Shown in pieces: positions 6,837 through 31,377 of a stretch of 64,000 bases of DNA. This DNA comes from a virus (Duplodnaviria > Caudoviricetes). Below the pieces are notes generated by a model. The model was not told where the DNA came from, searched no databases, and worked only from the letters and a program-made list of their open reading frames with translations. Each line of letters opens with the position of its first letter. Position 1 is the first letter of the stretch. The translations under genes and the position numbers were made by a program. The stretch lies in the IMG/VR virus record IMGVR_UViG_3300017987_005501. One strand, 5' to 3'.

Positions 6837-8072
6837 ATGGCAAAATTTAAGATTAAAAAAGAAGCATTATTAGATAACTTAAATCTAGCTTCTCTTGCGA
6901 TAAATCGAAGGGAAGAAGATATTACAAGTAACTTTGTTTTTAAGGTTGAGGATGAAAAACTTGTAATTTTAGCAACTGATAATACTTCAATTGCAAAAGT
7001 AAAGGTTGGAAAAATTAGTCTAGAGGGCGATGATAATGAATCCTTTTCTTTTACCTTAAAAGCTCAAAAAGTTTTAGGGTTGTTAGGGACCTTAAAAAAG
7101 GATAACGAAGTCGAGTTTAATTTTAATAAGGCAGATATGAATGTCGTTATTAATGAAACTTATGATTTTCCTTCTCTTGATCCAGACGATTTCCCAGAAT
7201 TTAATAGTGAAATTGAAAAGGCAGAGTCTATTTCGGAAATAAAAATTGATGCATTGAGTAATGCCCTAAAATATATTAATGGGTTTATTGGGAATGACCC
7301 TCAAGGCCGTCCAGAATTAACTATTGGTTTAATTAAGGATAATACTTTCTTGGCGAGTAATGGAAAAACCTTTGGGGTATATGAATCTAAGGACCTTAAA
7401 GCAGATGGGTTTGAAGTAAGCTACAACGTTATTGGAAATATCCAGAAGTTTACTAAGGGTTTTGAAACCCCTATTGTTGTTGAGCCTAAAGATAAAAATA
7501 AGGACGACGACTCTAAGGACGACGACTCTAAGGACGACGACTCTAAGGACGACGACGGAGCGGTTGTCCCCTCTAAAAAGATAAAGCTACTGAAAAGTTC
7601 TAACTTTTTCATTATTGCTTCCCCCGACGAGTTAAACTACTATGGGTTTAGAAAGTGCGACTATAAATTCCCAGCTCAAAAGCTTCAAACGCAAATTGAG
7701 AAGGGAAAGGACGCAGAAACAAAATGCAAAATTTCTCGAGTTGAACTTTCGGAAGTCATTAACCGTTTATCTTTCTGTATCGATGAAACAAGCAATAGGA
7801 TGTCTTTTGTATTAACTGGGGATTCAGACGAGGCAGAGTTAGAAATCTCTGTTATTGGTTCCCATAAAAGGACAACTACAGAAAAAATGAAGGTCTCAAG
7901 ACTTTCAGGCGAAGAGGATATTACTTTTAGCCTAAACTTTAACCACTTAACTAAAGTTTTACCCCTTTATGACAGCCCTGAAATAATCCTATCAGAAAAT
8001 AAAGCTATTATGTTATCAGACGAACTTGACGACCACAATCTTTATGGGATGATTGCAGTTTTAAGGAGTTAA
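6837..8072 (+). CDS. dnaN: DNA polymerase III beta-type sliding clamp
   Basis: Three-domain clamp pattern: LATDN, DFP, LASNGKTF (ATDGHRL equivalent), ITFSLNFNHL. Confidence 0.75.
   Translation: MAKFKIKKEALLDNLNLASLAINRREEDITSNFVFKVEDEKLVILATDNTSIAKVKVGKISLEGDDNESFSFTLKAQKVLGLLGTLKKDNEVEFNFNKADMNVVINETYDFPSLDPDDFPEFNSEIEKAESISEIKIDALSNALKYINGFIGNDPQGRPELTIGLIKDNTFLASNGKTFGVYESKDLKADGFEVSYNVIGNIQKFTKGFETPIVVEPKDKNKDDDSKDDDSKDDDSKDDDGAVVPSKKIKLLKSSNFFIIASPDELNYYGFRKCDYKFPAQKLQTQIEKGKDAETKCKISRVELSEVINRLSFCIDETSNRMSFVLTGDSDEAELEISVIGSHKRTTTEKMKVSRLSGEEDITFSLNFNHLTKVLPLYDSPEIILSENKAIMLSDELDDHNLYGMIAVLRS
7500..7556 (+). repeat. 15-bp tandem repeat (AAGGACGACGACTCT x3.8) encoding KDDDS in the clamp
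   Basis: Perfect tandem copies seen directly. Confidence 0.95.
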
Positions 8073-9176: not shown

Positions 9177-9896
9177 ATGCTGGCTAAAGAAAAAATAGTT
9201 CAAAGGATAGAGAAGCTTAAATTAAAGTACCTTAAAAAATATTATAAAAAATATTTTTCGAGAATTCCCGAGAACTGTAAATATAACCACCAGCAAAAGC
9301 AATTGCGTAAAACAACTGGGGAAGTTCTAATTGACCCTGACACGTTAAAACCAATTACTGTTGGTTTATGTATGATGGGTTGTAATAAACCGGATGATTG
9401 GAAGGGCAGCTTCTGTATGTATAAAGAAACAGCAGAAAGCTGCCCTTTCTTTACCGATAAATACAGTAAGACCCAAATCCGAAGTAAATTTGAGGAAGAG
9501 CTACGTAACCGTAATATACGGGCCGAAAAGTATAAAGACTTACATGAGTTGTATTTAATAATAAAACCAGGGGAAGAAGACGAAGACCTCTTTAGAGTTG
9601 ATAATCTTTTATCCGAAATAGATTCGTTACAAAACGAAGAGCTAACTGATTTAAGGGAAATGATAATAGCTGAGGTCAAGGCAAGGGACTTGGAACAAAA
9701 AGTTACTCCAAATTTTGATTTCCAATCTTTTTTTAATATAATAGAAACGGACGATCTTAGGAAATTAGCTCAACTAATTATATCTAGTCTTGAAAAAAGA
9801 GACGATTCAGATATAGACCAGCACCTTCTAAATAAAGATATCTGGAAAACGGAAGATCCCGCCGAGGAAGATTCCCTTTTTGAAAACGGACTTTAA
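9177..9896 (+). CDS. Hypothetical Cys-containing protein
   Basis: 239 aa ORF with several spaced Cys residues. Confidence 0.6.
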   Translation: MLAKEKIVQRIEKLKLKYLKKYYKKYFSRIPENCKYNHQQKQLRKTTGEVLIDPDTLKPITVGLCMMGCNKPDDWKGSFCMYKETAESCPFFTDKYSKTQIRSKFEEELRNRNIRAEKYKDLHELYLIIKPGEEDEDLFRVDNLLSEIDSLQNEELTDLREMIIAEVKARDLEQKVTPNFDFQSFFNIIETDDLRKLAQLIISSLEKRDDSDIDQHLLNKDIWKTEDPAEEDSLFENGL

Positions 9897-10493: not shown

Positions 10494-10814
10494 ATGTACG
10501 GATACTACGCAACAAAAAAACCAATTAAAGAAGTAGTCCGGGAATTAGAGAAAGACTTTAAAGGCCAATATCAAATAACGGCTACGCAGGTCTATGACTG
10601 GACAATTAAACACTACCCTTATAATGCATATCTTTTAGCCCCCGAAATAATTGGTTACTTTTGGAGGTATGTTAAAAATCATAATATCAATGTTTTAGCT
10701 TCCACCAAATCTTCCAGGATTAAGAGTAGTATAATTAATAGACTAAATAAAATTAGTAAAGTTCTGGAAAGATTAAATGAGCACGCAAGAGAAAATAAAA
10801 TCATTCATCGATAA
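10494..10814 (+). CDS. Hypothetical protein
   Basis: ORF in operon. Confidence 0.5.
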   Translation: MYGYYATKKPIKEVVRELEKDFKGQYQITATQVYDWTIKHYPYNAYLLAPEIIGYFWRYVKNHNINVLASTKSSRIKSSIINRLNKISKVLERLNEHARENKIIHR

Positions 10815-11481
10815 AGCCCACCGCAAGCTTCTTAGATCCCAAGAAGCATTATCCTACTTAGAAAAGCGTGGAGTTACTAAAGAGCAAATTGAGAGATATA
10901 AATTTGGTTTCTCTTTAACCAAAAAAATGGGTATCCCCGAATTTGATAAATGGTCTTTTAATGGGGATCGGTTAAAAAATCGCCTAATTTTCCCAATTAA
11001 AAATTCTCTAGGGGATTATAAAGCTTTTGGAACAAGGCTTAATAATAAAGATTCTGGGGGATACCAGTATTTTTATTTTGATAAGATAGAAGCAACCTTC
11101 TTTGGGATGGAAAACTTAAAATCTATTTGGGAAAAAGGGTACTGTTATATAACAGAAGGTATTTTTGATCACCTAGTTTTAGAACATTTATACGATAACT
11201 GTATTTGCCCTCTTACCGCAAACTTGAAACAAGGCAGACTTAAGTTTTTAAGTAGGTTTGCGGATACAATTATTTTTGCGTTTGATGCTGACAGTACCGG
11301 TATTGAGAAAATTAAGCAAATTTCTCAAAACGAGGACTTGAACCATTTAACCTTTTATCAATTTTCAAACTACAGAAGTGTCGGGGAAAATGTTAAAGAC
11401 TTAAATAACATATGGCAGGTACTCGGGGAGAGTAAATTTAAGGATTTTATCGAAAGACAAAATGATTTATTTGTTTTTTAG
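10777..11481 (+). CDS. DnaG-type primase catalytic core (Toprim) lacking the zinc-binding domain
   Basis: YLEKRG, RLIFPI, FGTR, ITEGIFD and FAFDAD motifs. Only 234 aa, with no CxxH...CxxC. Confidence 0.8.
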   Translation: MSTQEKIKSFIDKAHRKLLRSQEALSYLEKRGVTKEQIERYKFGFSLTKKMGIPEFDKWSFNGDRLKNRLIFPIKNSLGDYKAFGTRLNNKDSGGYQYFYFDKIEATFFGMENLKSIWEKGYCYITEGIFDHLVLEHLYDNCICPLTANLKQGRLKFLSRFADTIIFAFDADSTGIEKIKQISQNEDLNHLTFYQFSNYRSVGENVKDLNNIWQVLGESKFKDFIERQNDLFVF

Positions 11482-11985: not shown

Positions 11986-12405
11986 ATGATCATCAACCTT
12001 TTCGAAGATAAGATCGAAGAAATTTTAGATAAGCATAATGTTGCTGCTTCAAATTATGATAAATTAAAAACGGACTTAGTAAATGCTTTTGTAGAAAGCC
12101 ATTTAGCAACAAATAAACGACTTTCTACCCCTCCTAAGCACTTTCTTGAGTTTATGAAGAAAGAAAAGATAGAGAACCCCGATGTAATCTATAAAACTTT
12201 TTATAAGTGGGTTACAAAAACAGAAGAGGGTGAAAAATGGCTTTGTTCTACCCTCGGGGTCACTAGAGATGTTCTAACGGCAGATCTTGCTATTCAATAT
12301 ATGCAATCTGGTGGGAAAAAGGTCCATCTCAAACCATTACAGACTACAATTTATTACCGTGGAAAACCTAAGCAAAAAACACGGAAAAAGAAAAAGAATA
12401 CATAA
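11986..12405 (+). CDS. Hypothetical protein with basic C-terminus
   Basis: 139 aa ORF. Confidence 0.5.
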   Translation: MIINLFEDKIEEILDKHNVAASNYDKLKTDLVNAFVESHLATNKRLSTPPKHFLEFMKKEKIENPDVIYKTFYKWVTKTEEGEKWLCSTLGVTRDVLTADLAIQYMQSGGKKVHLKPLQTTIYYRGKPKQKTRKKKKNT

Positions 12406-13081
12406 AAAAAACTTTGAGAAGGGCACTCAAAACTTATTTTACTTTTTAAGGAATAGCGTTCTTGACGCGAACTTAAAATCGGCGAAGATGTTTTTAGGGC
12501 TTTTAAAGCAAAATTACAATATAAGCCCCTCATTGTTTAGAGAAAGTTTAGCCGATTGGCAAAAAGAGGAATTTGCAAAACTAAAAAAACAAGTCCTCGC
12601 TAATAACCTTCTAAATGAGATTAATATCCTTGAAGAAGAATATTGCAGTATTAAATCAGAAACAGACCCAATTCCAGAAAGAGAAATTCCAGATCTTTTA
12701 CTTCAGGGGCAACTTAAAAGCCTAACCAAAGTACTGGGAATAGTCCAACCTAAGTGGGGTGGCAAAGAGATCCCTATTAATGTTGGAAATACCGGAAAGA
12801 ATTATGTAGATTTAATTCTTGACGATTTAGGGGATGAAAGAAAAAGCAAATATATTATAGAGATAAAAACTCATCGCGCTGATCACAACGTTATCGGGCA
12901 AATTAAAAAGTACGAGTTGTTTTACCAAAAAAAATTAATCTACCGGCTATGGCACAATGTTATCCCCGTGGTAATTGCACATGGGTATGATAAAACTACA
13001 AGAACAGAACTTAAGAAACAAAACGTTCGGACCCTTATCTACGAATCCCCAAGAGATAAAATTAGTTTTATGGAAGTTTAA
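12359..13081 (+). CDS. NucS/EndoMS-like PD-(D/E)XK endonuclease domain protein
   Basis: KEIPI...YVDLIL...IIEIK...VIGQIKKY...PVVIA pattern. Start uncertain (GTG 12359 preferred over TTG 12287). Confidence 0.65.
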   Translation: MENLSKKHGKRKRIHKKNFEKGTQNLFYFLRNSVLDANLKSAKMFLGLLKQNYNISPSLFRESLADWQKEEFAKLKKQVLANNLLNEINILEEEYCSIKSETDPIPEREIPDLLLQGQLKSLTKVLGIVQPKWGGKEIPINVGNTGKNYVDLILDDLGDERKSKYIIEIKTHRADHNVIGQIKKYELFYQKKLIYRLWHNVIPVVIAHGYDKTTRTELKKQNVRTLIYESPRDKISFMEV

Positions 13082-13145
13082 AATTATGCTGGGGACAAAA
13101 GCAGTATAATAACTAATTACATGTTTGCTGTAAAGGAAACCTAGC

Positions 13146-13676
13146 ATGAAAGATTTATCCAAAGCTAAATGGACCGATAGCGATAAGCGGAATTGGAAAG
13201 AAACTATCAAAAGTTTTTATAATATAGAACACGTAACTTCAATTCAAAAATATAATCCATCAGATACAATTTTCCTCACCCGTTGTTCCTCTGCCAAATC
13301 CGGAAAAGTCCGTGGGACCCCTTCCCAAATGTATTGGGGGGCTATTAATAAAAAGTTCTACCGTATGCTGGATAAGTTTGAGTTATACTACGGGGTATGT
13401 AGCGACTTTCTAGGGGTTGTTTTTAAGGACGAAGAATTTGATAACTATGATGTTCATCCCGCCGATATTACAGACGAGGACAAGAGAAAACTTGGAGAAA
13501 TAATTAGTACTAAAATAAAGGAAAAGGGCTTTAAAAATGCCTATTTCTTTAATACTAGCCCTCTTTTATCGAGGCCCTATTTTGAGATGCTATATTATTC
13601 ACAAATTCCTGTAAAATATTTCTCGGATTTACAAATTGTTAGGGAAGCATTTGAAGTTGAAGATGATTTACTCTAG
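13146..13676 (+). CDS. DUF6884/DUF5591-like protein associated with TGT-family enzymes
   Basis: TRCSSAK...TPSQMY...F...VCSDFLGVV...NYD pattern; directly upstream of Gat-QueC. Confidence 0.5.
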   Translation: MKDLSKAKWTDSDKRNWKETIKSFYNIEHVTSIQKYNPSDTIFLTRCSSAKSGKVRGTPSQMYWGAINKKFYRMLDKFELYYGVCSDFLGVVFKDEEFDNYDVHPADITDEDKRKLGEIISTKIKEKGFKNAYFFNTSPLLSRPYFEMLYYSQIPVKYFSDLQIVREAFEVEDDLL

Positions 13677-13685
13677 GAGGTAGTT

Positions 13686-15164
13686 ATGTGTTCCATTTTT
13701 GGATTTTTTAAACCGTCCGGTGCTATTGGGGACTCATTCGAAGAAAATGGCTTCAAAATCCCCTGGAAAAGCTTATTCCATAAAATCACAGAAAATTCTA
13801 GCGAGAGAGGCAAGGATGCCTTCGGTTATGTCAAATTTGGAAGAGGCGCACCCATTGTAAATAAGTGGTCGTTGAAAAATTATTCAACACATCAAAAAGA
13901 AAATGCATACTACGGGTGGGGTGTTGACGAAGACTCGTGGGGACTTTTAGCAAATAATAGGGCAGAACCAGAAACAGAATTCCAAAAAGATTTTCAGGAA
14001 AAGGATTTTCAACCTTTTACCAGCCCTACCCTTAGTGGAAATACTGTCCATGTTGTGCATAATGGGTTGGTAAGTAACGATGCAGAAATCCGGGAAAGAT
14101 TAAAATTAAACCTTGACACGGAAACTGATTCAGCAGTTCTTCCCTATGTTTTTCGCCAAGCTACCTATTTTCAGGGATTTTTAAGGGATATTAAATACAA
14201 ACTAAAAGGTAGCTATGCCCTTGCCGTATATAATACCCTAAGCCCAGACAAGCTCTTTCTCTATAGAGATTTCAACCCGTTAACTGTTCTATATAATAAA
14301 CAAGAAAATGTATATATCTTTGCTTCCTTTGAAAAATACGTAAGAGAAGCTATTTCTAAATGCAAGGGAAACCAACTTAATTGGGCAACCATAGATATCC
14401 CTCCCTATTCTGGAGCTGTAATTTCTAAAAAAGGAATTGAAATAGCATCTATCGACTCCGTTGACGATTCTCAAAAGAAAGAACCGGTCCAAGAACTTTT
14501 CTTTGGAAAAAAGGCATTAATCGTAATGAGTGGGGGCCTTGATAGCGTTGTTGCTGCTATTATGATGAAAAATATGGGGTTTAAATTAGATTTCTTACAT
14601 TTCTCCTACGAAGGGAGAGCACAGGAAAAAGAAATCTCTGCTGTTAAAGACCTAGCAGAACATTTTAATGCTAATCTTGAAATTTTCAAATTCGACCTAT
14701 TTAAAAATTTAGGAGGAAGCAGCTTAGTTGACAGAAATATTGACTTAGCTGATGGGAAAGAGGGGGCGGAACATGCTAAAGATTGGATTCCCGCCCGAAA
14801 TACTGTCTTTACCGCTATTGCCGCTGCATACGCAGATAGGTTTAAGTACGATGCCATTGTCTTAGGATTAAATTTATCAGAGGGGATGACCTTCCCGGAC
14901 AATACAACGGAATATTTTGAAACTTTCTCTAGGGTTCTCAGTCTCGGGACAATGCAAAGACCTAAAATTATTTGTCCCTTAAGTAATATGACTAAACATG
15001 AGTTAGTATTATACGGTATGAGAGAAGACCCAGATGCTATAAAACTTAGCTATAGTTGCTATACAGGAAACGATAAACACTGTGGCACATGTGCAAGCTG
15101 CTACCTTAGAAAAATTGCTTTCAAGATGAACAACTTAAACGATCCGGCTGATTTTGAGGATTAA
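13686..15164 (+). CDS. queC: Gat-QueC fusion: class II glutamine amidotransferase plus 7-cyano-7-deazaguanine synthase
   Basis: N-terminal MCSIFG (Cys1), RGKD, VHNG, TDS, GSYAL. C-terminal SGGLDS, IPARN, PDNT, SCY...HCGTCASC. Confidence 0.92.
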   Translation: MCSIFGFFKPSGAIGDSFEENGFKIPWKSLFHKITENSSERGKDAFGYVKFGRGAPIVNKWSLKNYSTHQKENAYYGWGVDEDSWGLLANNRAEPETEFQKDFQEKDFQPFTSPTLSGNTVHVVHNGLVSNDAEIRERLKLNLDTETDSAVLPYVFRQATYFQGFLRDIKYKLKGSYALAVYNTLSPDKLFLYRDFNPLTVLYNKQENVYIFASFEKYVREAISKCKGNQLNWATIDIPPYSGAVISKKGIEIASIDSVDDSQKKEPVQELFFGKKALIVMSGGLDSVVAAIMMKNMGFKLDFLHFSYEGRAQEKEISAVKDLAEHFNANLEIFKFDLFKNLGGSSLVDRNIDLADGKEGAEHAKDWIPARNTVFTAIAAAYADRFKYDAIVLGLNLSEGMTFPDNTTEYFETFSRVLSLGTMQRPKIICPLSNMTKHELVLYGMREDPDAIKLSYSCYTGNDKHCGTCASCYLRKIAFKMNNLNDPADFED

Positions 15165-15167
15165 ATT

Positions 15168-16388
15168 ATGACAGAGAAGAAACCAGAAAAGAAACAAAAA
15201 CAACACGGAGTTGCCGAAGATATGAATACTCCACCGGAGCTAAGCGACACGAAGAAGCATACTCTTTATAAAACTTTGGAAGTCGCAAGAGAAAAAGTCA
15301 CAACGGAAATTAAAGATAAATGTGAAGGGAAGAAGAAGTTCGTTATTTGGATTGCACAAATCGACCCCGATGCCATTGGGTCCGCTATGGTTATTAGGTA
15401 CTACCTAATGGTTTGCTTAAATATCGACCCTAGTTATATCCAAATTTATTATGGTGGGGCCGTTTCCCACGCACAAAACCGGTGCATCTTTAATATTTTC
15501 GAGTTAGATAATTTATTCCAGCGAATATCTTGCGAAGAAGTGCCTCATAAGGAAGAGGAGGAAATTTGGTTTTTAGTAGATTCTAACGACCTTAATGATT
15601 CCAGGTTTTCTGGCATGGACTTATCAGATATTGATATTATTATTGATCATCATAGGATATCTGCTAAACAAAAAACCGAGGATAAAATTTATTTTATCGA
15701 TTCAATTGGGTCTGCTTCAACTTTAACAGTTGAACTCTTGGAAACAGAATGTTCTGGTTTAGAAAATTTACCTTCTGATTCCGACCGAGAGAAAGTTTTA
15801 ACCCTAGCATCAATTGGAATTCGAAATGACACAAACAACTTTACGTCAGCATTAACCCATACGAGGGACACAGAAGCACTTAATAAATTAATTCCTTTTA
15901 TTGATAATGATTTAACAATCCAAGTTGAAAATTACCCCCTGGATAATAACTATTTCTCTATACTATCTAATGTCCTTGAAACAAGAAAAGTTAAAGGAAT
16001 TAGAGCAATCGCCTCCGCTGGCTATATTTACGAGGAGGATGGGGACCAATTAGCAGAAGCTTGTAATCTGTTAATTCGGGAAGCCCGCGTTAGCATTGCT
16101 GTTGTTTGGGGGATTATTTTAGAAACGGGAAGGGTGCGACTTAGTATTCGAAGCAAAGATGTTTCTCTAAACCTTGATTCAAAATTAAAAGAGGTTTTCG
16201 AAGGAAAAGGAGGCGCAAAACAAACTAAGGGGGTTGCAGAAGGTGGAGTACATTTAGATATGGGAGATTTCGTACCTTCTGGGCCACTTAAGGATGATGA
16301 GACGTATAAGGAATATTGGAGAAACATTATAGAGGCAAATATTACAGGTAAAATTTCACTTATGTTAAAAGACAGTGGAGAAGATTAA
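15168..16388 (+). CDS. DHH/DHHA1 family phosphoesterase
   Basis: DPDAIGS, LVDSN, IIDHH and GIRNDT motifs, plus RLSIRS...GG DHHA1 domain. Confidence 0.85.
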   Translation: MTEKKPEKKQKQHGVAEDMNTPPELSDTKKHTLYKTLEVAREKVTTEIKDKCEGKKKFVIWIAQIDPDAIGSAMVIRYYLMVCLNIDPSYIQIYYGGAVSHAQNRCIFNIFELDNLFQRISCEEVPHKEEEEIWFLVDSNDLNDSRFSGMDLSDIDIIIDHHRISAKQKTEDKIYFIDSIGSASTLTVELLETECSGLENLPSDSDREKVLTLASIGIRNDTNNFTSALTHTRDTEALNKLIPFIDNDLTIQVENYPLDNNYFSILSNVLETRKVKGIRAIASAGYIYEEDGDQLAEACNLLIREARVSIAVVWGIILETGRVRLSIRSKDVSLNLDSKLKEVFEGKGGAKQTKGVAEGGVHLDMGDFVPSGPLKDDETYKEYWRNIIEANITGKISLMLKDSGED

Positions 16389-16389
16389 A

Positions 16390-17241
16390 ATGAATTTAAG
16401 ATACTATGGTTTCCAGCCCGAAATTAAAGAATACGTTGATAATACGCTCCGCCCAGGGGTGTATAAGACAGAACTTCCCTATATAATTTCATTTATTGGG
16501 GAAGCTAACGTTTCAAAAGATGGTCTTTGTGACTTAGCCGACATCCATGGAAGCGAGGCTTTTATTGAAGGAAATATGCTTCATTTTATCGCAGAGTTCC
16601 CAGATAATATTTCGCCTCACGAAATGGTTTTATATCAAAGAAGATTTATTACTATTGTAAAACAAAAAATTGAGGGCTTAGGAGATATTAAACTAACACA
16701 AGGTGGGGACGATTTATATTATAAAGGAAGGAAACTAAGCGTATCAATTGTTGCTCCTTCGACTGTCGGCACCTATCTTATGCACGCAGCATTTAATATC
16801 ACAAACAAGTGTAAGCTTAACATCTCTTGGCTGGACGAATTCATAGATACGGATTATGAATCATTAGTTAACCTATCCTTGGATTTAATGGGACAATTTA
16901 AGAATGAACTAGATTCGATAAATTATGCTGTACATAAGGTTAAACCCATTTATCCAGATGGGCATTTCCTTAACCTAGAAAAAGCAATTGAAAACGCAAG
17001 TTTTAGAGTTTCTAATTTACAAAAGATCATCAGAGACTTATATAAGGAAGTTACCTCAACCTTGCCTTACGAAGAAAAGAAAGATAAAGCCTTGGAGCTT
17101 ATTAGTCTTTTTCCCCTAAATAAAACAGAGGAATTAAAAGAAGCTTTGTCCTGTTGTAATGATGATCGCCATTTAGTCGCTTTTGCAGAAGCACTAATTA
17201 TTAAGCTGCTAAGAGAATCAAAAATCGTCTCTAACTATTAA
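16390..17241 (+). CDS. DUF366-like protein (biotin/lipoate ligase-like fold) with C-terminal helical extension
   Basis: SFIGEANV, DLAD, MLHFIAEF, YQR, GDDLYYKGRKLSVSI and HAAFNI motifs. Start ATG 16390. Confidence 0.75.
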   Translation: MNLRYYGFQPEIKEYVDNTLRPGVYKTELPYIISFIGEANVSKDGLCDLADIHGSEAFIEGNMLHFIAEFPDNISPHEMVLYQRRFITIVKQKIEGLGDIKLTQGGDDLYYKGRKLSVSIVAPSTVGTYLMHAAFNITNKCKLNISWLDEFIDTDYESLVNLSLDLMGQFKNELDSINYAVHKVKPIYPDGHFLNLEKAIENASFRVSNLQKIIRDLYKEVTSTLPYEEKKDKALELISLFPLNKTEELKEALSCCNDDRHLVAFAEALIIKLLRESKIVSNY

Positions 17242-17255
17242 GAAGGGTAATTTAT

Positions 17256-18812
17256 ATGAGTCATTTCTTTAATATTAAGAAGAAAGATATTGGGTACAGC
17301 CGGTTTGGAGAAATTGAATGTGTACACGAAAATGTAATTACCCCTTGTTATATTCCCGTTGTACCTTTTTTAGACTCTTCGGACGATTCAATCAGGACTG
17401 AAAATATAACAAAAAGTTTTCCCAAGAAGCCGGGTTTATCCCAGGTTTTGTTGCATAATAAAGATGGGAAGCTAAGTAAAAGCCAAAAAGAAAAGTTATC
17501 GACAAAAATTCATGAAACTCACCCACAATATGAGGGTGCTTTGTTTCTGGATAGTGGAGGGTTTAAGTTAATTAGAATGGATATTGAAGATATGCCTTTT
17601 AAGGAAGTTTTTGATATCCAGAAAGATGTTGGAGGCGACATCTTCTTCACTTTGGATTATCCTATTATTAAGGATATGCCTTTTCCAATGCAGATTAAAA
17701 GGGCTAATAAAAGCCTGGATAACGCCATTAAAGCACTTCAATACCGTAAAGACCTTTGGGGGACTGCAACTGATAAACCTATTGTTTATGTTGCAGTGCA
17801 TGGCACTTCTACGCAGTTTGTTAGGGACTATTTGGAGGAATTCTTCCGCCTCCTTAAAAAACACGATCTAGAAGATGTTCCATTTGGTTTCGCTCATGGG
17901 TCCTTGGTCCCCTTAAAGCATCGAAGGTATCTAGTATTGGATTTCCTTTACGAGACCAAAATGGTGTTGAAAGAAAAAGACATGTTAGACAAGGTCCCAA
18001 TCCACGCATTTGGGATCTCGGGATCTTTAATTCCTCACCTTGGGCTATTAGGAATTGATACCTTTGATAGTGCCTCTTATTTACTTTCGGCCGGGAACCA
18101 CCAAATCTTTGATCCTGAAACATTAGAGACAATTAGTTTTATGGAAAAAGAAGATTCCGTCGAAAAAGGAAAGTATTGTAAGAGAAGAGGGATCGACCCC
18201 ACGAAGTTTAAGAATCTAAAAGAAGCGTGGGGCTGTGATTGTATGTGGTGCGAGAAAGTAAAAAATGCATATCCTCCTGCGAAGGAAAATCTTGTTGATT
18301 TCGCACGAATTATCCAAAGAGTTGTGCCTCAAGAAGGGGGTTGGAGAGAGGATAAGGATTTCTTACAATATCTAAAAGACCGAAATTTCGCATTTATGGA
18401 CTATTTATATGTTCATATGATTTGTCACAACCTGACAGTCACTAATAATCTTGTTTCTAAAATGCATGAACATCTTAGGGCTGGGACATATGAAGGATTT
18501 TTCTTTGACTTCCTTAATAAAGTCCACCAAGGGAATTCTAAAAAACAAGTTAAGCAGATAAGATTCCTCAATTCTATTTTGAAGGACCAACCAAAATTTT
18601 ATGATCTAGCAGCAAAACACGTTCCCCAAATTAAAGGTAGGGAGCTACTAGAAACTAACTCATCTCCTAAGAGACCAAAACTCGTGGACTTTAAAATGGA
18701 CACTTCTGGAATCGGTTTGCACCCAGGGAAACATAAAAAAGCGGAGAAGAAAATTGCAGCAGAGAGAAGAATGAAAAAGGAGCAAACCTATTTTGAAGAT
18801 GACCTTCTTTAA
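17256..18812 (+). CDS. TGT-family guanine transglycosylase with archaeal-type pocket; candidate DNA-modifying DpdA
   Basis: RFGEI...TPCYIPV, LDSGGF, TLDYP, VHG, GSLVPL, IHAFG, GIDTFDS, CDCMWC...HN zinc motif. Confidence 0.85.
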   Translation: MSHFFNIKKKDIGYSRFGEIECVHENVITPCYIPVVPFLDSSDDSIRTENITKSFPKKPGLSQVLLHNKDGKLSKSQKEKLSTKIHETHPQYEGALFLDSGGFKLIRMDIEDMPFKEVFDIQKDVGGDIFFTLDYPIIKDMPFPMQIKRANKSLDNAIKALQYRKDLWGTATDKPIVYVAVHGTSTQFVRDYLEEFFRLLKKHDLEDVPFGFAHGSLVPLKHRRYLVLDFLYETKMVLKEKDMLDKVPIHAFGISGSLIPHLGLLGIDTFDSASYLLSAGNHQIFDPETLETISFMEKEDSVEKGKYCKRRGIDPTKFKNLKEAWGCDCMWCEKVKNAYPPAKENLVDFARIIQRVVPQEGGWREDKDFLQYLKDRNFAFMDYLYVHMICHNLTVTNNLVSKMHEHLRAGTYEGFFFDFLNKVHQGNSKKQVKQIRFLNSILKDQPKFYDLAAKHVPQIKGRELLETNSSPKRPKLVDFKMDTSGIGLHPGKHKKAEKKIAAERRMKKEQTYFEDDLL

Positions 18813-20828: not shown

Positions 20829-23800
20829 ATGCAGACATCGACAGCAGTAATCCAGGATTCCATATTCAGTACCCAAATGGCTTATGAAAATTGGATAAGC
20901 AAATACCGGTATAAACAAGAAAACCCAATCGATACTTTTAGAAGAGTTGCAAAAGAGTTAGCAAAAATAGAAGCTCCAGATAAAAGAGAATATTGGGAAG
21001 ATAAATTTTTCCATGCAATGGTTAAAGTGGAAAACGGAATAGCAGTCGGGCTAAAATGTACTCCTGGCGGAAGAATCACATCAAACGCAGGAGCGAAAGA
21101 TAAAAATAAGGGAGGAAAAGCAACCCTTTTTAATTGTTTTATTAATGGCCCCGTAACAAACGCAAATATTAATTATTCAAAGGATATCCAGAACGAAAAG
21201 GTAGCATTTAAACTTAAGACCTCCGATTCCCCGGATGACCTTAATAATATTTTTCTAACTATCCTAGAGCAAGCAAAAACACTTGCATCCGAAGGTGGTT
21301 ATGGAATTAATTTTGATTTTATTCGTCCTCGAGGTTCTGTTATTAAGGGAACGAAAATTAAGCATCCTGGAGTCTTATCCTATATGAATGTTTGGGATAC
21401 GGTTGCAGCGATGATTATCAAGGGGGATAACGATGGCTATGCTGATACCCTCAAAAATTATTTAACGGAAGAAGAACAAGAACGCTGGGAAGCGGAATTT
21501 GAAAACTTAAAGAGGGCACCTCGCAAAGGTGCTATGATGGGATGTTTAACCGTATCACACCCTGATATCGAAGAGTTTGTGCGTGCCAAACAAACTCCAG
21601 GAGTTTTGACAAAGTTTAACATCTCAGTTGTTGTAACAGATGAGTTTATGACAGCAGTTGCAGAAGACAACCTTTTCGAATTAAAATTTAATGGTAAAGT
21701 TTATAAAAGAATCAAAGCTCGCGACCTTTTTGACCTCATTATGAAAAGTACCTATAACCGGGCAGAACCAGGGATTCTTTTCTACGATAATATGCAGAGA
21801 AATAACCCGATTAGTTACCTAGGAAAGGTTAATGCAACGAACCCGTGTTTTACTGGGGAAATGCGTCTTCATACCAACAAAGGGCTTATAACATTTAAGC
21901 AGCTGCATGAGAATGGGAAGAAAAATATCGTTGTCGTAGACGAAAGAGTTTATGACGAAGGTAAAATCGATACTGAAAATTTAGGAACTTCCTTAAAAAG
22001 GGCATCGGAAGTTGTACTAACGGAGAAAAAAGCTAAAATTTTAAGGATTACAACTTTGGATGGCCGAGAACTTAGAGTTACCCCCTACCATAGATTCCCT
22101 ACCCTTACGGGATTTAAGGAAGCTAAAGACCTATCAATCAACGATCCTATTTATTTGCAATCGGAGGAGGGGCGATGGGGGAAAAAAGGATCCTTTGAGT
22201 ATGGGATTTTAGTGGGGCTACTTACTGGGGATGGCACTTTCTCCCAAGACATTGATTATAGAACTGAAAGTAATTATTCCTCGGACCGTGCAATTATTTC
22301 CTTATGGAACGAGGATACGGACACTATTAATCGGGTTCGGGGTTTCCTTAAAGTTCTGTTTAATAAGGAGTTGAAAGGAAATCTTAAAAAGAATGCTTCT
22401 ATTAATGGGTATTCAAGATTTAATTTCTCCTCAAATCTTCTTTACTCAAAAATTAAATTAGACCTGGATGAAGAAAATCCAAGACTTATTAAAGCTCGGG
22501 TTCCAGATTTCGTTTTCAAGGGAAGTCGCGAGATGATCGTGGGATACCTCCAAGGTTTATTTTATGCAGATGGTAGTGTGAATTTTAGCGATAAAAAAAG
22601 AGATTTAACACTTCGGCTTGCTCAAAGCAATAAAAAGCTTTTACAAGATGTCCAAAATTTACTTTCTAGTTTTGGCATTAACGCAAAGCTACGAAAAGCC
22701 CGAGACGAAAACGAAACAATGCTTCCTGATGGAAGAGGGGGTTATAAGGCATATTCCTGTAAAGCTAATTATGAGCTTATTCTAAATAGGTTTAACACCA
22801 TAAGGTTTAAGGAAAGAATTGGCTTATTCGGAAAAGCAAAAAATAAGAAATTAGATAATGCTTTACAAACATTCCAAAAAAACCCATATAAAGAAAAATT
22901 TGAAACGAAAATTATTTCAATCGAAGAAGATGGGGAAGAGGACGTTTATTGCCTAAACCAACCAGAAAACGAGTCCATTATTGTAAATGGAGTTTTAACT
23001 GGAAATTGCGGAGAGATTCCGGGAAATCCAACTATCTCAACAACTTGTTTATTAGGGAACTTAAACCTAACTGCCTATGTGAGAAAAGATAGAACATTCG
23101 ATTATGAGTCTTTTAAGGAAGACGTAAAAACATTTGCTAGGTTATTGGATAATGTAAATGATATTTCTTTTTTGCCTCTTTCAAGATATGAAAATGCTGT
23201 TAAGTCATTAAGGCAATATGGAATGGGTCTAAATGGTCTTGGTTCTGCCTTAATCATGATGGGAATCCCCTATAATTCCCCGGAAGGAATTGCTTTTGCC
23301 GAAGAATTGGCATATCTTAAAGAAAATATTACGATGCAAACCAGTGCCTTACTCGCAAAAGAAAAAGGCGCTTTTCCTTATTATTGTGAGGATTTTCTAG
23401 ATACGGATTATTTTAAGTCTGATAGGCTAACAAGCGAAACAAAGGCTTTAGTTAAAAAGTATGGAGTTAGAAACGCAAAAACAACAACGAACCCACCCAA
23501 TGGAAATACTTCCATTATCTGTGATATTGTCTCAAACGGAATTGAACCTGTGTTCATGCTTGAATACGAGCGATTTAGAATGGCGGACGACTGGCCAGAA
23601 GGATTAAATCTCGATAATGTTAAAACTTTACTGGATGAAATCAAGATTGGAGATGCTATTGCTTGGAGAGGAAAATATAAAGGATCTGAATATTATTTCG
23701 AGCCCCAAAATAGAGGTCTTTGTATTGTAGAACCAGTCCGAGACTATGGGTATCAGTGGGTTCTAGATAATTATCCAGACGACAAAAAGAAAAAGTACCT

Positions 23801-24581
23801 AGTAACAACAGAAAAATTAAAGGTTGAAGATCATATTAGTATGCAAGCTGCCGTTCAATATTATTGTAACCAGTCAATCTCAAAAACAATTAACCTTCCG
23901 AACGACTATAAATTTGAAAATTTTAAGAAAGTTTACGTTAAAGGTTGGGAGGCTGGATTATTGGGAGTTACAACCTATAGAGCGGGTACGATGGAAGCTG
24001 TTATCAAGGAAAAAGACAAGAAAGAAGAAGAAAAGGTTATGTGGGATAGTGTAAAACTTCCCAAGAAATTCCTAAATGGGGCAACACACGTAATTAAACG
24101 TGAAGGAATGAAATTTTATATTCATTTTTCTTTCCTCCCTGCGGATGTTGAGAATAAAAAACCTGTTGCAATCTGGATTAACTCTAACCATAAACCAAAA
24201 CACGAGTCGGCACAAACAAGAAAGATGATTAGTATTATCGCAGATTTATGTAAGGAAAAGGGAGTAAATCCAGATATTGTTGATCAGTACATGGAAAAAA
24301 TTATGAAAAATGATTTACATGTGCGTCTTGCTAAAATCGCGTCTCTTGCTTTAAGACATAACGTAACTCCTAAGGAGATTGTCGAAACATCTAGAGATAT
24401 CCCTAACTTAGACGTAACAACTTTAGTTTATGCCGTAAGAAAATTCCTTAGCGCACATATTAAAAATGGAACTCCAGTCCAAGATAAGGTTTGCGAAAAT
24501 AAAAAATGTAAATCAACAAACCTTATTTATGAGAGTGGCTGTATTAAATGTCTAGATTGTGGAACTTCCGGTTGCGATTAA
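20829..24581 (+). CDS. nrdJ: Class II (B12-dependent) ribonucleotide reductase with intein
   Basis: TPGGR, LFNC, EGGYG, RPRGS, HPDIEEF, KFNISV, NP/CGE, PNGNTS, SNGIEP and TTYRAG motifs, C-terminal Zn ribbon. No nrdB nearby. Confidence 0.88.
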   Translation: MQTSTAVIQDSIFSTQMAYENWISKYRYKQENPIDTFRRVAKELAKIEAPDKREYWEDKFFHAMVKVENGIAVGLKCTPGGRITSNAGAKDKNKGGKATLFNCFINGPVTNANINYSKDIQNEKVAFKLKTSDSPDDLNNIFLTILEQAKTLASEGGYGINFDFIRPRGSVIKGTKIKHPGVLSYMNVWDTVAAMIIKGDNDGYADTLKNYLTEEEQERWEAEFENLKRAPRKGAMMGCLTVSHPDIEEFVRAKQTPGVLTKFNISVVVTDEFMTAVAEDNLFELKFNGKVYKRIKARDLFDLIMKSTYNRAEPGILFYDNMQRNNPISYLGKVNATNPCFTGEMRLHTNKGLITFKQLHENGKKNIVVVDERVYDEGKIDTENLGTSLKRASEVVLTEKKAKILRITTLDGRELRVTPYHRFPTLTGFKEAKDLSINDPIYLQSEEGRWGKKGSFEYGILVGLLTGDGTFSQDIDYRTESNYSSDRAIISLWNEDTDTINRVRGFLKVLFNKELKGNLKKNASINGYSRFNFSSNLLYSKIKLDLDEENPRLIKARVPDFVFKGSREMIVGYLQGLFYADGSVNFSDKKRDLTLRLAQSNKKLLQDVQNLLSSFGINAKLRKARDENETMLPDGRGGYKAYSCKANYELILNRFNTIRFKERIGLFGKAKNKKLDNALQTFQKNPYKEKFETKIISIEEDGEEDVYCLNQPENESIIVNGVLTGNCGEIPGNPTISTTCLLGNLNLTAYVRKDRTFDYESFKEDVKTFARLLDNVNDISFLPLSRYENAVKSLRQYGMGLNGLGSALIMMGIPYNSPEGIAFAEELAYLKENITMQTSALLAKEKGAFPYYCEDFLDTDYFKSDRLTSETKALVKKYGVRNAKTTTNPPNGNTSIICDIVSNGIEPVFMLEYERFRMADDWPEGLNLDNVKTLLDEIKIGDAIAWRGKYKGSEYYFEPQNRGLCIVEPVRDYGYQWVLDNYPDDKKKKYLVTTEKLKVEDHISMQAAVQYYCNQSISKTINLPNDYKFENFKKVYVKGWEAGLLGVTTYRAGTMEAVIKEKDKKEEEKVMWDSVKLPKKFLNGATHVIKREGMKFYIHFSFLPADVENKKPVAIWINSNHKPKHESAQTRKMISIIADLCKEKGVNPDIVDQYMEKIMKNDLHVRLAKIASLALRHNVTPKEIVETSRDIPNLDVTTLVYAVRKFLSAHIKNGTPVQDKVCENKKCKSTNLIYESGCIKCLDCGTSGCD
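21846..23006 (+). mobile_element. 387-aa intein with LAGLIDADG homing endonuclease at the RNR active-site cysteine
   Basis: Starts CFTGE after NP, ends VLTGN before CGE. Endonuclease motifs VGLLTGDG and LQGLFYADG. Confidence 0.93.
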
Positions 24582-24631: not shown

Positions 24632-24689
24632 GCCTTTTTAAAAGTAATTTGAATTCCTCCTATTGTATTATTATAGAAAAGGGGGAAAA

Positions 24690-25508
24690 ATGCATAAGAA
24701 ATACGCAAAAGAAAACCTTCCTAGCTTTATAATTATTGGGGCACAGAAAGCGGGGACAACTTCTTTATATAACGATATAACACAACACCCAAAAATTTTT
24801 AGGGCGAAGGATAAGGAACCTTCTTATTTCAATGTTTTTTATGATAAAGGTCTAGACTGGTATAAGTCTTTTTTTAAAAATAGAAAACCAACAAAAGTTC
24901 CCGATATAAGAAATGGGGGGATCATGGATCCTCTTAGATATGGGAGCCGGGACCAAATTACAGGGGAAGCAACTCCTCTATATTTAACGGATGAAGTTCA
25001 AACAAGAATTAAAGACTTAATCCCTCACGTTAAAATAATAGCCCTCCTTAGAGACCCTATTAAAAGAGCTTGGTCCGGGTATCAACATAATAGATATTAT
25101 CGCCCGAAATCTGAAAATAGGGACTTTTTAACTGCGGTTTCCTGGGAACTTCCCGACACCTATTTAGAGGAAAAAAAGAATTTCAAGGGAAGAAAATTCC
25201 CCTATCTCTCAACGGGACTCTATGCCGAACATCTAAAAAGATGGTACCAAGTTTTCGATAAGGAACAAATCTTAGTTATTGACAGCGAGCGTTATTTTAA
25301 GAATAGGCTTAAATGTTGTCATCTAGTTCTCGAATTTTTAGGTCTCGAAAAATTTAATCCCATGATTGGGTTCCATCACATGAAGGGGAAGGGGCCTCAA
25401 ATAAATCAAGAAGACTATTTGAAATTAAAAAACTTTTATATAGAGGCTAATAAAGAATTAAAAACTCTTATTGGGGAATTTAGCTGGATGAAAAATTATG
25501 AACATTAA
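24690..25508 (+). CDS. PAPS-dependent sulfotransferase (heparan-sulfate O-sulfotransferase-like family)
   Basis: 5'-PSB IIGAQKAGTTSL, GEATPLY, 3'-PB LRDPIKRAWSGY. Confidence 0.88.
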   Translation: MHKKYAKENLPSFIIIGAQKAGTTSLYNDITQHPKIFRAKDKEPSYFNVFYDKGLDWYKSFFKNRKPTKVPDIRNGGIMDPLRYGSRDQITGEATPLYLTDEVQTRIKDLIPHVKIIALLRDPIKRAWSGYQHNRYYRPKSENRDFLTAVSWELPDTYLEEKKNFKGRKFPYLSTGLYAEHLKRWYQVFDKEQILVIDSERYFKNRLKCCHLVLEFLGLEKFNPMIGFHHMKGKGPQINQEDYLKLKNFYIEANKELKTLIGEFSWMKNYEH

Positions 25509-30864: not shown

Positions 30865-31377
30865 ATGAAACCTTTTGTATCCGACTGGAAACAATTTAAA
30901 ACAGACTGTAAAATTCTAGCCGACGAAATATTAAAAAACCCTATTAAAGATTTGCCAAAACCTAAAAGCATTTTAAGTCTTAATACGGGAGGGGCAGAAG
31001 TTGCAAAAGAGCTTAAAAAACTAATTCCTTCCATAAAAAAAGAATACTACCTTGAGGCTAATCCCGAGAAAATAATTCTTCCTCTTAAGTCCCCTGATAA
31101 GATTAAAGGCCCCGCTATTTTAGTTGCAGCTATACAAGATACGGGGAAAACTATAAGAAAGGCGTTGGAATATTTAGAAATAACATTCGAAAAATATGAC
31201 TTGGATATAACAATTGCCGTGTTATATGATAAATTAAGAAAAGATTTCGTAACTTACGTTTTGCCAACTTACTGTGGGGTAGGGTTTGCTATGGGGGAGA
31301 CCGTGTGGGTTAACTTCCCTTGGGAAACCTTTGATATAACCAACGAGGAGCAGGATGAACAGCAAAAAGAAATTTAA
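30865..31377 (+). CDS. Type I phosphoribosyltransferase (Gpt/Hpt-like) with altered PRPP loop
   Basis: LNTGGAEVA, LVAAIQDTGKT, WVNFPWE. Confidence 0.7.
   Translation: MKPFVSDWKQFKTDCKILADEILKNPIKDLPKPKSILSLNTGGAEVAKELKKLIPSIKKEYYLEANPEKIILPLKSPDKIKGPAILVAAIQDTGKTIRKALEYLEITFEKYDLDITIAVLYDKLRKDFVTYVLPTYCGVGFAMGETVWVNFPWETFDITNEEQDEQQKEI

Follow-up and report, generated by a model that had tools for sequence, protein, structure and literature searches.

A probable 7-deazaguanine DNA-modification module with an archaeal-type transglycosylase in a jumbo-phage replication locus

Five tightly packed genes of an uncultured jumbo phage probably form a post-replicative 7-deazaguanine DNA-modification module built around a base-exchange enzyme of a type not yet described. 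This reading starts from the gene content, intact catalytic motifs, conservation, folds and synteny that we observe, and it holds that the phage most likely exchanges the guanine of its genomic DNA for a 7-deazaguanine of the archaeosine type, with dG+ or dPreQ0 as the probable product of the exchange. Such modification is a main phage counter-measure to restriction enzymes and CRISPR nucleases, and the current count stands at five DpdA subfamilies (bDpdA and DpdA1-4) and a four-enzyme pathway to preQ0. What would be new here is an exchanger with its ancestry in the archaeal-type TGT branch, not in a known DpdA, along with two helpers not known to act in this chemistry, a DUF366 protein and a DUF6884-like putative DNA binder. 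Exchanger and helpers could be tools for site- or genome-wide replacement of G. The window analyzed here, a 64-kb stretch, carries the following features, all on the + strand.

6837..8072, + strand, phage beta sliding clamp (Pfam DNA_pol3_beta N-terminal domain E 1e-12, C-terminal domain E 5e-5)
12287..13081, + strand, NucS-like PD-(D/E)XK nuclease candidate (Pfam NucS_C E 1.5e-4, below cut-off)
13146..13676, + strand, DUF6884-like (YaaA-like) putative DNA-binding, base-flipping protein, 176 aa (Pfam below cut-off)
13659..13673, + strand, EDDLL, C-terminal pentapeptide of the DUF6884-like protein, identical to the TGT tail
13686..15164, + strand, Gat-QueC, 492 aa, class II glutamine amidotransferase plus QueC PP-loop synthetase (Pfam QueC E 3e-53)
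15168..16388, + strand, DHH/DHHA1-type two-domain phosphoesterase, 406 aa (Pfam DHH 39.1 bits, cut-off 28.1)
16390..17241, or from a GTG at 16375, + strand, long-form DUF366 protein, 283 aa (Pfam PF04017 101.1 bits versus 29.9)
17256..18812, + strand, ArcTGT-like transglycosylase, 518 aa (Pfam TGT 63 bits)
18795..18809, + strand, EDDLL, C-terminal pentapeptide of the TGT (E-x-D-L-[LFI] at the C-terminus in 4/4 TGT orthologues)

An initial annotation of this DNA had described an archaeosine-type 7-deazaguanine operon with an ArcTGT-like pocket, and that description holds: all five genes are found, packed on the + strand between 13146 and 18812 with intergenic gaps of 9, 3, 1 and 14 nt, and the set includes an intact Gat-QueC and a TGT with its GSLVPL segment. 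The single promoter-like motif proposed to drive them fares less well; a TATAAT is indeed present in the 64-nt gap ahead of the set, but promoter-like sites in the region are no commoner than in shuffles (33 versus 26.9 ± 5). The operon belongs to the replication module on a jumbo-phage-like contig of 283 kb; the clamp and a primase lie to one side of it and delta', delta, RNR and tau/gamma to the other, and the same strand runs on downstream into the clamp-loader delta' gene. The NucS-like nuclease candidate may extend the deazaguanine module, as two related contigs (L004 and L009) have orthologues directly upstream at the corresponding place, with 35-39% identity.

The Gat-QueC protein is, by its motifs, an intact member of its family, with an N-terminal amidotransferase fused to a QueC that bears the Zn Cys cluster. 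It keeps Cys2 (N-terminus MCSIFG), the SGGLDS PP-loop and the C-terminal C...CxxCxxC cluster, matches Pfam GATase_7 at E 5e-12 and passes TIGR00364 (150.7, cut-off 150.3), and aligns over its full length with PHROG 10428 (E 8e-78) and with homologues in 66 cultured phage records. The closest phage kin of the system as a whole are the dG+ systems of the 9g/Nonagvirus type (FolE, QueD, QueE, Gat-QueC and DpdA1) and of the Vibrio phage nt-1/V07 type (DpdA2). They share with it a two-domain Gat-QueC (31% identity over the full length), a TGT-superfamily exchanger and replication-gene neighbors, and the expected outcome would be the same, a restriction-blocking 7-deazaguanine in phage DNA (PMC6884629). 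The differences are that the exchanger is 518 aa long here, compared with about 316, and is neither DpdA1 nor DpdA2, that FolE, QueD and QueE are not nearby, and that DUF366 and DUF6884-like genes are added. The Nonagvirus and Vibrio phage V07 clusters contain neither DUF366 nor DUF6884, which bears out the earlier description of the operon as extended by extra genes.

[quoted passage not shown] Phage 9g needs no more than Gat-QueC and a DpdA to obtain dG+ in DNA, provided that the host supplies the earlier steps (PMC6884629). By the mechanism that we propose, 7-carboxy-7-deazaguanine would come from the host or from other regions of the genome, Gat-QueC would turn it into preQ0, and its glutaminase domain would allow conversion of preQ0 to the amidine G+. 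The ArcTGT-like enzyme would then exchange guanine in phage DNA for that base.

The transglycosylase consists of a TIM-barrel catalytic domain with a Zn site, a helical domain of its own (approximately residues 346-455), a basic segment and, at the C-terminus, a helix that ends in EDDLL. The protein keeps the motifs DSGGF, TLD, FDSASY and CxCxxC...H, none of which varies across the clade; with its catalytic Asp residues and Zn site intact, the protein has the core of the TGT superfamily and looks active. Its best PDB match is the Pyrococcus horikoshii ArcTGT 1IQ8 (sequence E 4e-12, fold E 3e-18), and fold matches to TGTs range from E 1e-14 to 3e-18. As the initial annotation had proposed, the pocket resembles that of ArcTGT, since an HMMER alignment places GSLVPLK on GGVVPLL of 1IQ8. 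The archaeal-type "VPL", with a Lys replacing the bacterial Glu235, would fit preQ0-type bases. The enzyme has in common with ArcTGT the catalytic Asp residues, the Zn site and this preQ0-type pocket, whereas overall identity is only 20% and the helical domain, basic stretch and acidic-hydrophobic tail replace C1, C2 and PUA.

Among cellular proteins, the catalytic domain is most closely related to TGT+ArcS-core (DUF5591) fusions of 600-650 aa from cyanobacteria and Chloroflexi, which align with the phage enzyme at about 30% identity (E 1e-35 to 1e-42) and carry the same GSLVPL[KR]. The phage TGT lacks their ArcS C1 amidinotransferase core (PC-x3-KPY-x2-S-x2-H) and is accompanied instead by a separate Gat-QueC. 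Our literature search found no paper assigning a function to these fusions; one of them sits in a defense-island-like setting, beside GmrSD and HEPN genes. By sequence, the enzyme is closest to archaeal ArcTGT and to the bacterial fusions, and it falls outside DpdA1 and DpdA2, the two subfamilies compared one by one. A profile (A3) of this TGT clade and the bacterial fusions reaches DpdA1 (L012) and DpdA2 (L013) only at E ~1e-3, and a tblastn comparison with 50,697 cultured phage genomes finds no match to the TGT, nor does it have a PHROG match or a DpdA match in PADLOC. It nonetheless shows the linkage to preQ0/G+ genes in a virus by which a DpdA is recognized, with Gat-QueC within 2.1 kb here and linked in the three related contigs (L004, L009 and L011).

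We infer that DNA is the target of the TGT from its context, the tail that it shares with the DUF6884-like protein, that partner itself and the lack of a PUA domain. The alternative is a tRNA enzyme that places an archaeosine-like or preQ0 base in phage or host tRNAs (e.g., at G15 or G34), tuning or protecting translation, with Gat-QueC and DUF366 supplying the base. We consider this unlikely, although the best sequence and fold matches of the TGT are ArcTGT and tRNA TGTs, and the fact that its closest characterized homologue is a tRNA enzyme counts against our preferred reading, as do the remote profile match to DpdA1 and DpdA2 and the lack of a DpdA match in PADLOC. In addition, relatives carry a second TGT adjoining an S1 RNA-binding protein, so RNA-directed TGTs may exist in the lineage. 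Against a role on tRNA, the tRNA-binding domains C1, C2 and PUA of ArcTGT were not detected (nor was DUF5591, by Pfam), and the score for TIGR00432, the ArcTGT (TgtA) model, is 66.7 bits, far below its cut-off of 350. Moreover, the TGT lies within a replication module and has its tail in common with a DNA-binding-type protein, no tRNA gene was found within the 64-kb window, and the phage Gat-QueC systems studied to date all modify DNA (PMC6884629, PMC10516641).

The gene order recurs in three independent contigs (L004, L009 and L011) at protein identities of 35-62%, which is far beyond chance. Two of them (L004 and L009) keep the order DUF6884-like, Gat-QueC, long DUF366 and TGT, and in the third the end of Gat-QueC, DUF366 and the TGT abut; counting the present contig, DUF366 lies directly upstream of the TGT in 4/4. 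The initial annotation had named linkage of the accessory genes in relatives as a check. Such linkage holds for the DUF6884-like protein and DUF366, which accompany Gat-QueC and the TGT in all relatives with enough sequence, but not for the DHH gene, which was not found in any of the three contigs. The slot between Gat-QueC and DUF366 is occupied by the DHH gene here, by a weak SAM-methyltransferase-like protein and a DUF4031 protein in L004 and by an unknown protein in L009; the DHH protein is a lineage-specific occupant of a variable slot. It fits the DHH/DHHA1 phosphoesterases (NrnA/RecJ-like build), with IDPD and DHH motifs present, and although DHHA1 is not called by Pfam, its structural neighbors in the Atlas are DHH+DHHA1 proteins (TM 0.7-0.8). 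We would place it outside the core steps of the module, as a lineage-specific add-on.

The initial annotation had gone further and proposed that DUF366, the DHH enzyme and the DUF6884-like protein are added steps that turn preQ0 or G+ into an undescribed DNA base. Several observations are compatible with such hypermodification: an enzyme of the biotin-protein-ligase (BPL) fold could link the 7-carboxylate of CDG to an amine, the contents of the slot between Gat-QueC and DUF366 vary, glycosyltransferases follow the TGT in L004 and L009, and the phage DUF366 carries a clade-specific extension of about 95 aa. We nevertheless regard the proposal as quite improbable. The DHH gene is missing from all relatives, where its slot holds other genes or none, and its part as an added step is not upheld; the DUF6884-like protein resembles proteins that bind DNA more than enzymes that tailor bases, judging from its Atlas neighbors and from the literature on the family (PMC11701544). 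DUF366, for its part, is standard in cellular preQ0 operons without modification-specific genes.

These operons shift the assignment of the uncharacterized DUF366 itself. The gene lies inside queD-queC-DUF366-queE-folE at 67/80 genome loci and at 12/12 loci of a second sample, is also found in preQ0 operons at L005-L007, and adjoins queD, not queC, in a Chloroflexia MAG. Since DUF366 routinely belongs to the preQ0 operons of cells, it points to precursor synthesis or hand-over and not, as had been suggested, to further hypermodification; its retention there also suggests that the textbook pathway may have an unrecognized player. B. subtilis-type QueC is not known to need a partner, and this, like the place beside queD in the Chloroflexia MAG, speaks against a partner role for DUF366. 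Our literature search found no publication naming DUF366 or PF04017, and DUF366 has no match among 50,697 phage records.

The predicted model of the phage DUF366 (pLDDT 88) assigns its core to the biotin/lipoate-protein-ligase fold. Foldseek retrieves the DUF366 structure of P. horikoshii PH0223 (2DDZ) at E 3e-11 with a TM by target of 0.82, consistent with membership in PF04017, followed by BPL/LplA at E ~1e-7 and TM 0.4-0.5. The invariant GDDLY...KLSVSI aligns with PNDVY...KKVSGVL of Aquifex BPL, at a sequence E of only 0.4-0.7, which puts the invariant Lys where BPL has its catalytic Lys. A biotin-loop motif was looked for in vain, and the ligase superfamily serves as a working analogy for DUF366. 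The phage form shares with cellular DUF366 the invariant GDD...K...H...N and a QueC-type neighbor. It differs in its length of about 283 aa, with some 95 C-terminal residues forming a helical extension confined to the phage clade, and in its partners, which are Gat-QueC and TGT without QueD, QueE or FolE. In the proposed mechanism, long-form DUF366 would act at the same late stage as Gat-QueC, as a partner that uses ATP to activate a carboxylate or else holds the base, and then passes the base on.

Alternatively, DUF366 might stand in for the preQ0 reductase QueF, in which case the module would make and insert preQ1-type bases. Counts in a 301-genome sample of one phylum lend this some support, with QueF present in 1/31 DUF366-positive genomes and in 74/270 others; among QueC-positive genomes, 33 have only QueF, 28 only DUF366, 1 both and 21 neither. 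The counted genomes are mutually related, however, so these numbers do not represent independent events. A bacterial-type TGT is also present in 5/5 tested DUF366-positive genomes that lack QueF. We consider the substitution very improbable because one Chloroflexia MAG holds both DUF366 and QueF, the 21 QueC-positive genomes have neither gene, the BPL fold offers no obvious redox site and the pocket of the phage TGT is of the preQ0 type. Furthermore, DUF366 is found in M. jannaschii and M. acetivorans, which served as control rows, and archaea, as far as is known, use preQ0 directly.

The remaining helper is probably a distant member of DUF6884. The protein scores 21.1 bits against PF21818 (E 3.8e-4; cut-off 30), has CSSAK as the CxxxK motif and CSDFLG at the place of the second motif, LSAxxG. 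In the Atlas, 92/100 feature neighbors carry DUF6884, and structural matches to DUF6884 and DUF6884+GIY-YIG clusters reach TM 0.58-0.65. Orthologues upstream of Gat-QueC show 54% (L004) and 49% (L009) identity and keep the tail. DUF6884 proteins are YaaA-like and DNA-binding and are often fused to GIY-YIG nucleases (PMC11701544). Within the module, the protein would bind DNA and expose the target nucleotide.

The C-terminal pentapeptide EDDLL that ends both this protein and the TGT takes the form EIDLF(E) in the DUF6884-like orthologue of L004 and EEDLI in that of L009, and is conserved in 3/3. This E-x-D-L-[LFI] tail resembles a sliding-clamp-binding motif. The bacterial beta-clamp-binding motif is QL[SD]LF. 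The likeness lies in a pentapeptide at the extreme C-terminus whose third residue is Asp/Ser, whose fourth is Leu and whose fifth is hydrophobic, placed after a flexible basic segment on replication-module proteins; position 1 of the phage tail is Glu, not Gln. Complex prediction with the phage clamp, which is very divergent from DnaN, gave 0.36 versus 0.00 for the best control, a result that the method rates as weak support, with passes at 0.60 or below being more often wrong than right. The mark used was reached by 58/80 solved complexes and 2/110 mismatched pairs. Separate runs share at least 93% of their contacts, with a partner pLDDT of at least 54, and we note that the pass may stem from likeness to solved clamp-peptide complexes.

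Most plausibly, the tails of the TGT and the DUF6884-like protein would dock on the phage sliding clamp, so that the two would be brought to new DNA by way of the clamp; a shared docking tail would explain how the enzymes reach a whole 283-kb genome during replication. A bolder version of the module, which we put forward only tentatively and think unlikely as a whole, would make the TGT a sixth type of DNA guanine transglycosylase, tethered to the clamp and working at the fork with a YaaA/DUF6884-type base flipper. DUF366 would be an unrecognized fifth member of the preQ0 pathway, as enzyme or carrier, common to archaea, bacteria and these phages, and G would be replaced nearly completely, coupled to replication, by an archaeosine-type or new 7-deazaguanine. 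The tail motif class occurs at 4/71 C-termini versus 0.13 expected, an approximately 30-fold enrichment for a motif that was defined after being seen. The primase keeps QNxLFxF.

Five plus-strand genes occupy 13146-18812, with intergenic gaps of 9, 3, 1 and 14 nt, and they lie among replication and nucleotide genes on the same strand.

Genes of the operon and of the surrounding window (support in brackets)
13146-13676, plus strand, DUF6884-like protein (Pfam 21 bits, under the cut-off)
Plus strand, Gat-QueC (QueC domain E 3e-53; full-length match to PHROG 10428, E 8e-78)
Plus strand, DHH phosphoesterase (family scan)
Plus strand, DUF366 (101 bits)
17256-18812, plus strand, TGT family (63 bits)
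7-1344, same strand as the operon, RecA with intein (family scans)
20829-24581, same strand as the operon, ribonucleotide reductase large subunit with intein
Elsewhere in the window, same strand as the operon, SbcD-like nuclease; PD-(D/E)XK nucleases
Elsewhere in the window, same strand as the operon, divergent beta clamp; NYN protein; primase
Elsewhere in the window, same strand as the operon, clamp-loader delta' and delta; tau/gamma
Elsewhere in the window, same strand as the operon, PRPP synthetase; flap endonuclease; sigma factor

Genes stay on a single strand until ~42 kb, and contigs carrying the TGT protein reach 283.5 kb; the window is a replication/nucleotide module from a jumbo phage whose machinery is of bacterial type. 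The Gat-QueC translation begins MCSIFG and has intact motifs, with the SGGLDS PP-loop and a Cys cluster at the C-terminus. The initial annotation placed the operon behind one promoter-like motif. A TATAAT is indeed present in the 64-nt gap 5' of the operon, but promoter and terminator scans of the region returned site numbers not above those of shuffles, and promoter-like sites are thus not enriched.

Only three close relatives of the TGT were found among 5.8 billion clustered proteins (61, 62 and 49% identity). When 1.84 billion representatives were searched exhaustively with HMMER, one cluster of this clade came first, then one of a shorter paralogue, then bacterial proteins. Neither the single TGT sequence nor the alignment of its clade retrieved a relative from IMG/VR. 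The order common to the relatives' contigs is NucS-like, DUF6884-like, Gat-QueC, a variable slot, a long DUF366 and TGT. The slot holds the DHH gene in the window, an uncharacterised 163-aa protein in one relative (L009) and nothing in another (L011); in a third (L004, 8108-9110, between Gat-QueC and DUF366) it is filled by DUF4031 together with a protein weakly similar to SAM methyltransferases (E 5e-4), the latter recalling DpdM, the preQ1 methyltransferase of other phages. The DUF6884-like, DHH and DUF366 proteins had all been proposed as additional steps, possibly towards an undescribed hypermodified base; in the relatives the linkage is kept for DUF6884-like and DUF366 but not for DHH. 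Because the order is kept and the slot varies, we regard the DUF6884-like protein, Gat-QueC, DUF366 and TGT as the core and DHH as an add-on.

As for the DHH protein itself, assignment as an inorganic pyrophosphatase was not adopted, since the match is weak and confined to the DHH domain (E 0.003) and the C-terminal half resembles DHHA1 more than DHHA2. The DHH/DHHA1 build is that of pAp phosphatases and nanoRNases. A PAPS-type sulfotransferase gene (24663-25508; Sulfotransfer_1, E 5e-18) lies nearby in the phage replication module, and the two proteins might be linked. On the other side of the core, a NucS-like PD-(D/E)XK nuclease candidate (12287-13081, under the Pfam cut-off) has counterparts in L004 and L009, again directly 5' of the DUF6884-like gene. 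It may be part of the module, perhaps as a nuclease that distinguishes modified from unmodified DNA.

The TGT motifs are intact (DSGGF, TLD, FDSASY and the zinc site CxCxxC...H). The archaeal-like pocket suggested in the initial annotation is borne out, in that HMMER aligns GSLVPLK with GGVVPLL of the Pyrococcus horikoshii archaeal tRNA-guanine(15) transglycosylase (ArcTGT). This enzyme (1IQ8) is also the best solved relative by sequence (E 4e-12) and, with a structure model of pLDDT 86, by fold (Foldseek E 3e-18). Such kinship would suit a role directed at tRNA; the score, however, falls far under the ArcTGT equivalog cut-off, and a Pfam scan finds no PUA-type tRNA-binding domains, and we consider a tRNA role unlikely. 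Among DNA-directed enzymes, a profile (A3) built from the window TGT clade and its bacterial relatives reaches Nonagvirus DpdA1 and Vibrio phage V07 DpdA2 only at E about 1e-3, and the TGT fails the sequence test for DpdA1 and DpdA2 as compared here. It has no match by tblastn against 50,697 cultured phage genomes and none in PHROG or PADLOC. The nearest cellular relatives are bacterial fusions of 600-650 aa that join a TGT domain to the catalytic core of ArcS; the PC-x3-KPY motif of that core is visible in their alignment consensus. On balance, we lean toward the module modifying DNA.

One such fusion gene (TGT + ArcS core, DUF5591) lies on the Allocoleopsis franciscana chromosome, with DUF7662-HTH before it and GmrSD_N and HEPN genes after it (locus L130:8001-11621). 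The defence-island look of this single locus hints at a DNA target in this branch of TGTs, and the locus could be an island in which a bacterium combines archaeosine-type modification of DNA with restriction. In Atlas clusters, DUF7662 is also found fused to DUF6884.

Our literature search found no paper naming DUF366 or its Pfam family, PF04017, and the P. horikoshii member PH0223 is mentioned in the literature found solely as a self-interacting protein. The phage DUF366 model (pLDDT 88) matches PH0223 (2DDZ) first, followed by biotin and lipoate protein ligases. The invariant GDDLY...KLSVSI aligns with the ligase adenylate-site motif PNDVY...KKVSGVL, with weak sequence statistics. Cellular members are ~190 aa long; those of the phage clade are longer by a helical extension of ~95 aa. 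Searching BFVD by fold returned no viral DUF366 that was close. Cellular DUF366 lies inside preQ0 operons in three unrelated contigs. The complete order queD-queC-DUF366-queE-folE occurs in 67 of 80 genome loci (most others end at contig edges), and DUF366 is within the preQ0 operon in 12/12 loci of a 301-genome sample from one phylum (the family is present in 31 of these genomes); the genomes are related, and these counts are therefore not independent events. The association covers several lineages, and the family is also present in methanogen control genomes. In one bacterial contig, queD-queC-DUF366-queE is immediately preceded by the gene for an HGD-D / double-cubane-type Fe-S protein (L005:4961-5932).

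FolE, QueD and QueE had been reported missing from the window, and we confirm this; the phage module lacks these genes, and DUF366 is kept there with Gat-QueC and TGT. We therefore place the role of DUF366 most likely at or after the stage of 7-carboxy-7-deazaguanine (CDG). When two QueC profiles were compared to see whether the phage QueC domain belongs to the DUF366-linked subtype, it scored about equally against both (151 vs 145 bits in the window), with the opposite trend in the relatives.

DUF366 and QueF are nearly mutually exclusive in the 301-genome, one-phylum sample. Among its 83 QueC-positive genomes, 33 have QueF only, 28 DUF366 only, 1 both and 21 neither, and a bacterial-type TGT is present in 5/5 tested DUF366-positive genomes without QueF. 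Nevertheless, we largely reject DUF366 as a QueF substitute, because a Chloroflexia MAG holds both genes and methanogens carry DUF366 though archaea are not known to need preQ1.

The Atlas neighbours of the DUF6884-like protein are overwhelmingly DUF6884, some of them fused to GIY-YIG nucleases, and the three orthologues conserve a CxxxK motif and an LSAxxG-like motif. Pfam curators describe DUF6884 as a YaaA-like family that binds DNA and may flip bases (PMC11701544). The protein shares its terminal pentapeptide, EDDLL, with the TGT, and E-x-D-L-[LFI] stands at the extreme C-terminus of 4/4 TGTs and 3/3 DUF6884-like proteins. Four window proteins, all in the replication module, have ends of the type [EQ]x[DS]L[FLIM].

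Motifs at these four C-termini
9177-9896, EDSLF
10777-11481, QNDLF
13146-13676, EDDLL
17256-18812, EDDLL

The motif class, defined post hoc, is found in the last ten residues of 4/71 window proteins against 0.13 expected (~30-fold). Primase orthologues conserve QNxLFxF. We take the pattern to resemble the bacterial clamp-binding motif QL[SD]LF. When TGT residues 480-518 were modelled in complex with the phage clamp, the score was 0.36 (runs 0.36, 0.30 and 0.60; best control 0.00); contact agreement between runs was 93% or more and the partner pLDDT 54 or more. The mark applied is reached by 58/80 solved complexes and 2/110 mismatched pairs. Because hardly any sequences related to the clamp exist, its alignment was padded with distant bacterial DnaN sequences. 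The prediction weakly suggests that the tail may dock on the phage clamp, and the pass may stem from similarity to clamp-peptide complexes already solved.

Gat-QueC and a DpdA suffice for dG+ in DNA when the host provides CDG; deleting queC from the host leaves the system functional but deleting queD does not, and swapping QueC for Gat-QueC changes the product from dPreQ0 to dG+ (PMC6884629). By analogy, we infer the substrate, product and protein contacts of the phage module as follows. CDG or preQ0 would be drawn from the host or from genes beyond the window, Gat-QueC would finish the base with DUF366 assisting, the ArcTGT-like enzyme would put it into DNA, and the DUF6884-like protein, together with the shared tail, would direct this chemistry to freshly replicated DNA. 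The base is most likely dG+, with dPreQ0 second and something new third. Some jumbo phages carry partial deazaguanine systems and may depend on host enzymes (review, PMC7824862). The module would work like known phage dG+/dPreQ0 systems, whereas the Nonagvirus and V07 clusters lack its two extra conserved proteins, DUF366 and the DUF6884-like protein.

The relatives also carry the second, shorter TGT paralogue (L004:15233-18127 and L132:3557-6488; 422-424 aa, 32% identical), which lacks the C-terminal tail. Its gene is invariably preceded by one for an S1 RNA-binding protein and followed by those for a 175-aa protein and delta', and glycosyltransferases adjoin; this block is absent from the window. 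Within the window, the ribonucleotide reductase intein includes a LAGLIDADG endonuclease, and a stand-alone LAGLIDADG/HTH gene is found at 59199-60722. At 30865-32314, the start of the clear PRPP synthetase gene is overlapped by a gene with weak similarity to phosphoribosyltransferases (19 bits, under the cut-off), and such a pair could convert a free base to a nucleotide.
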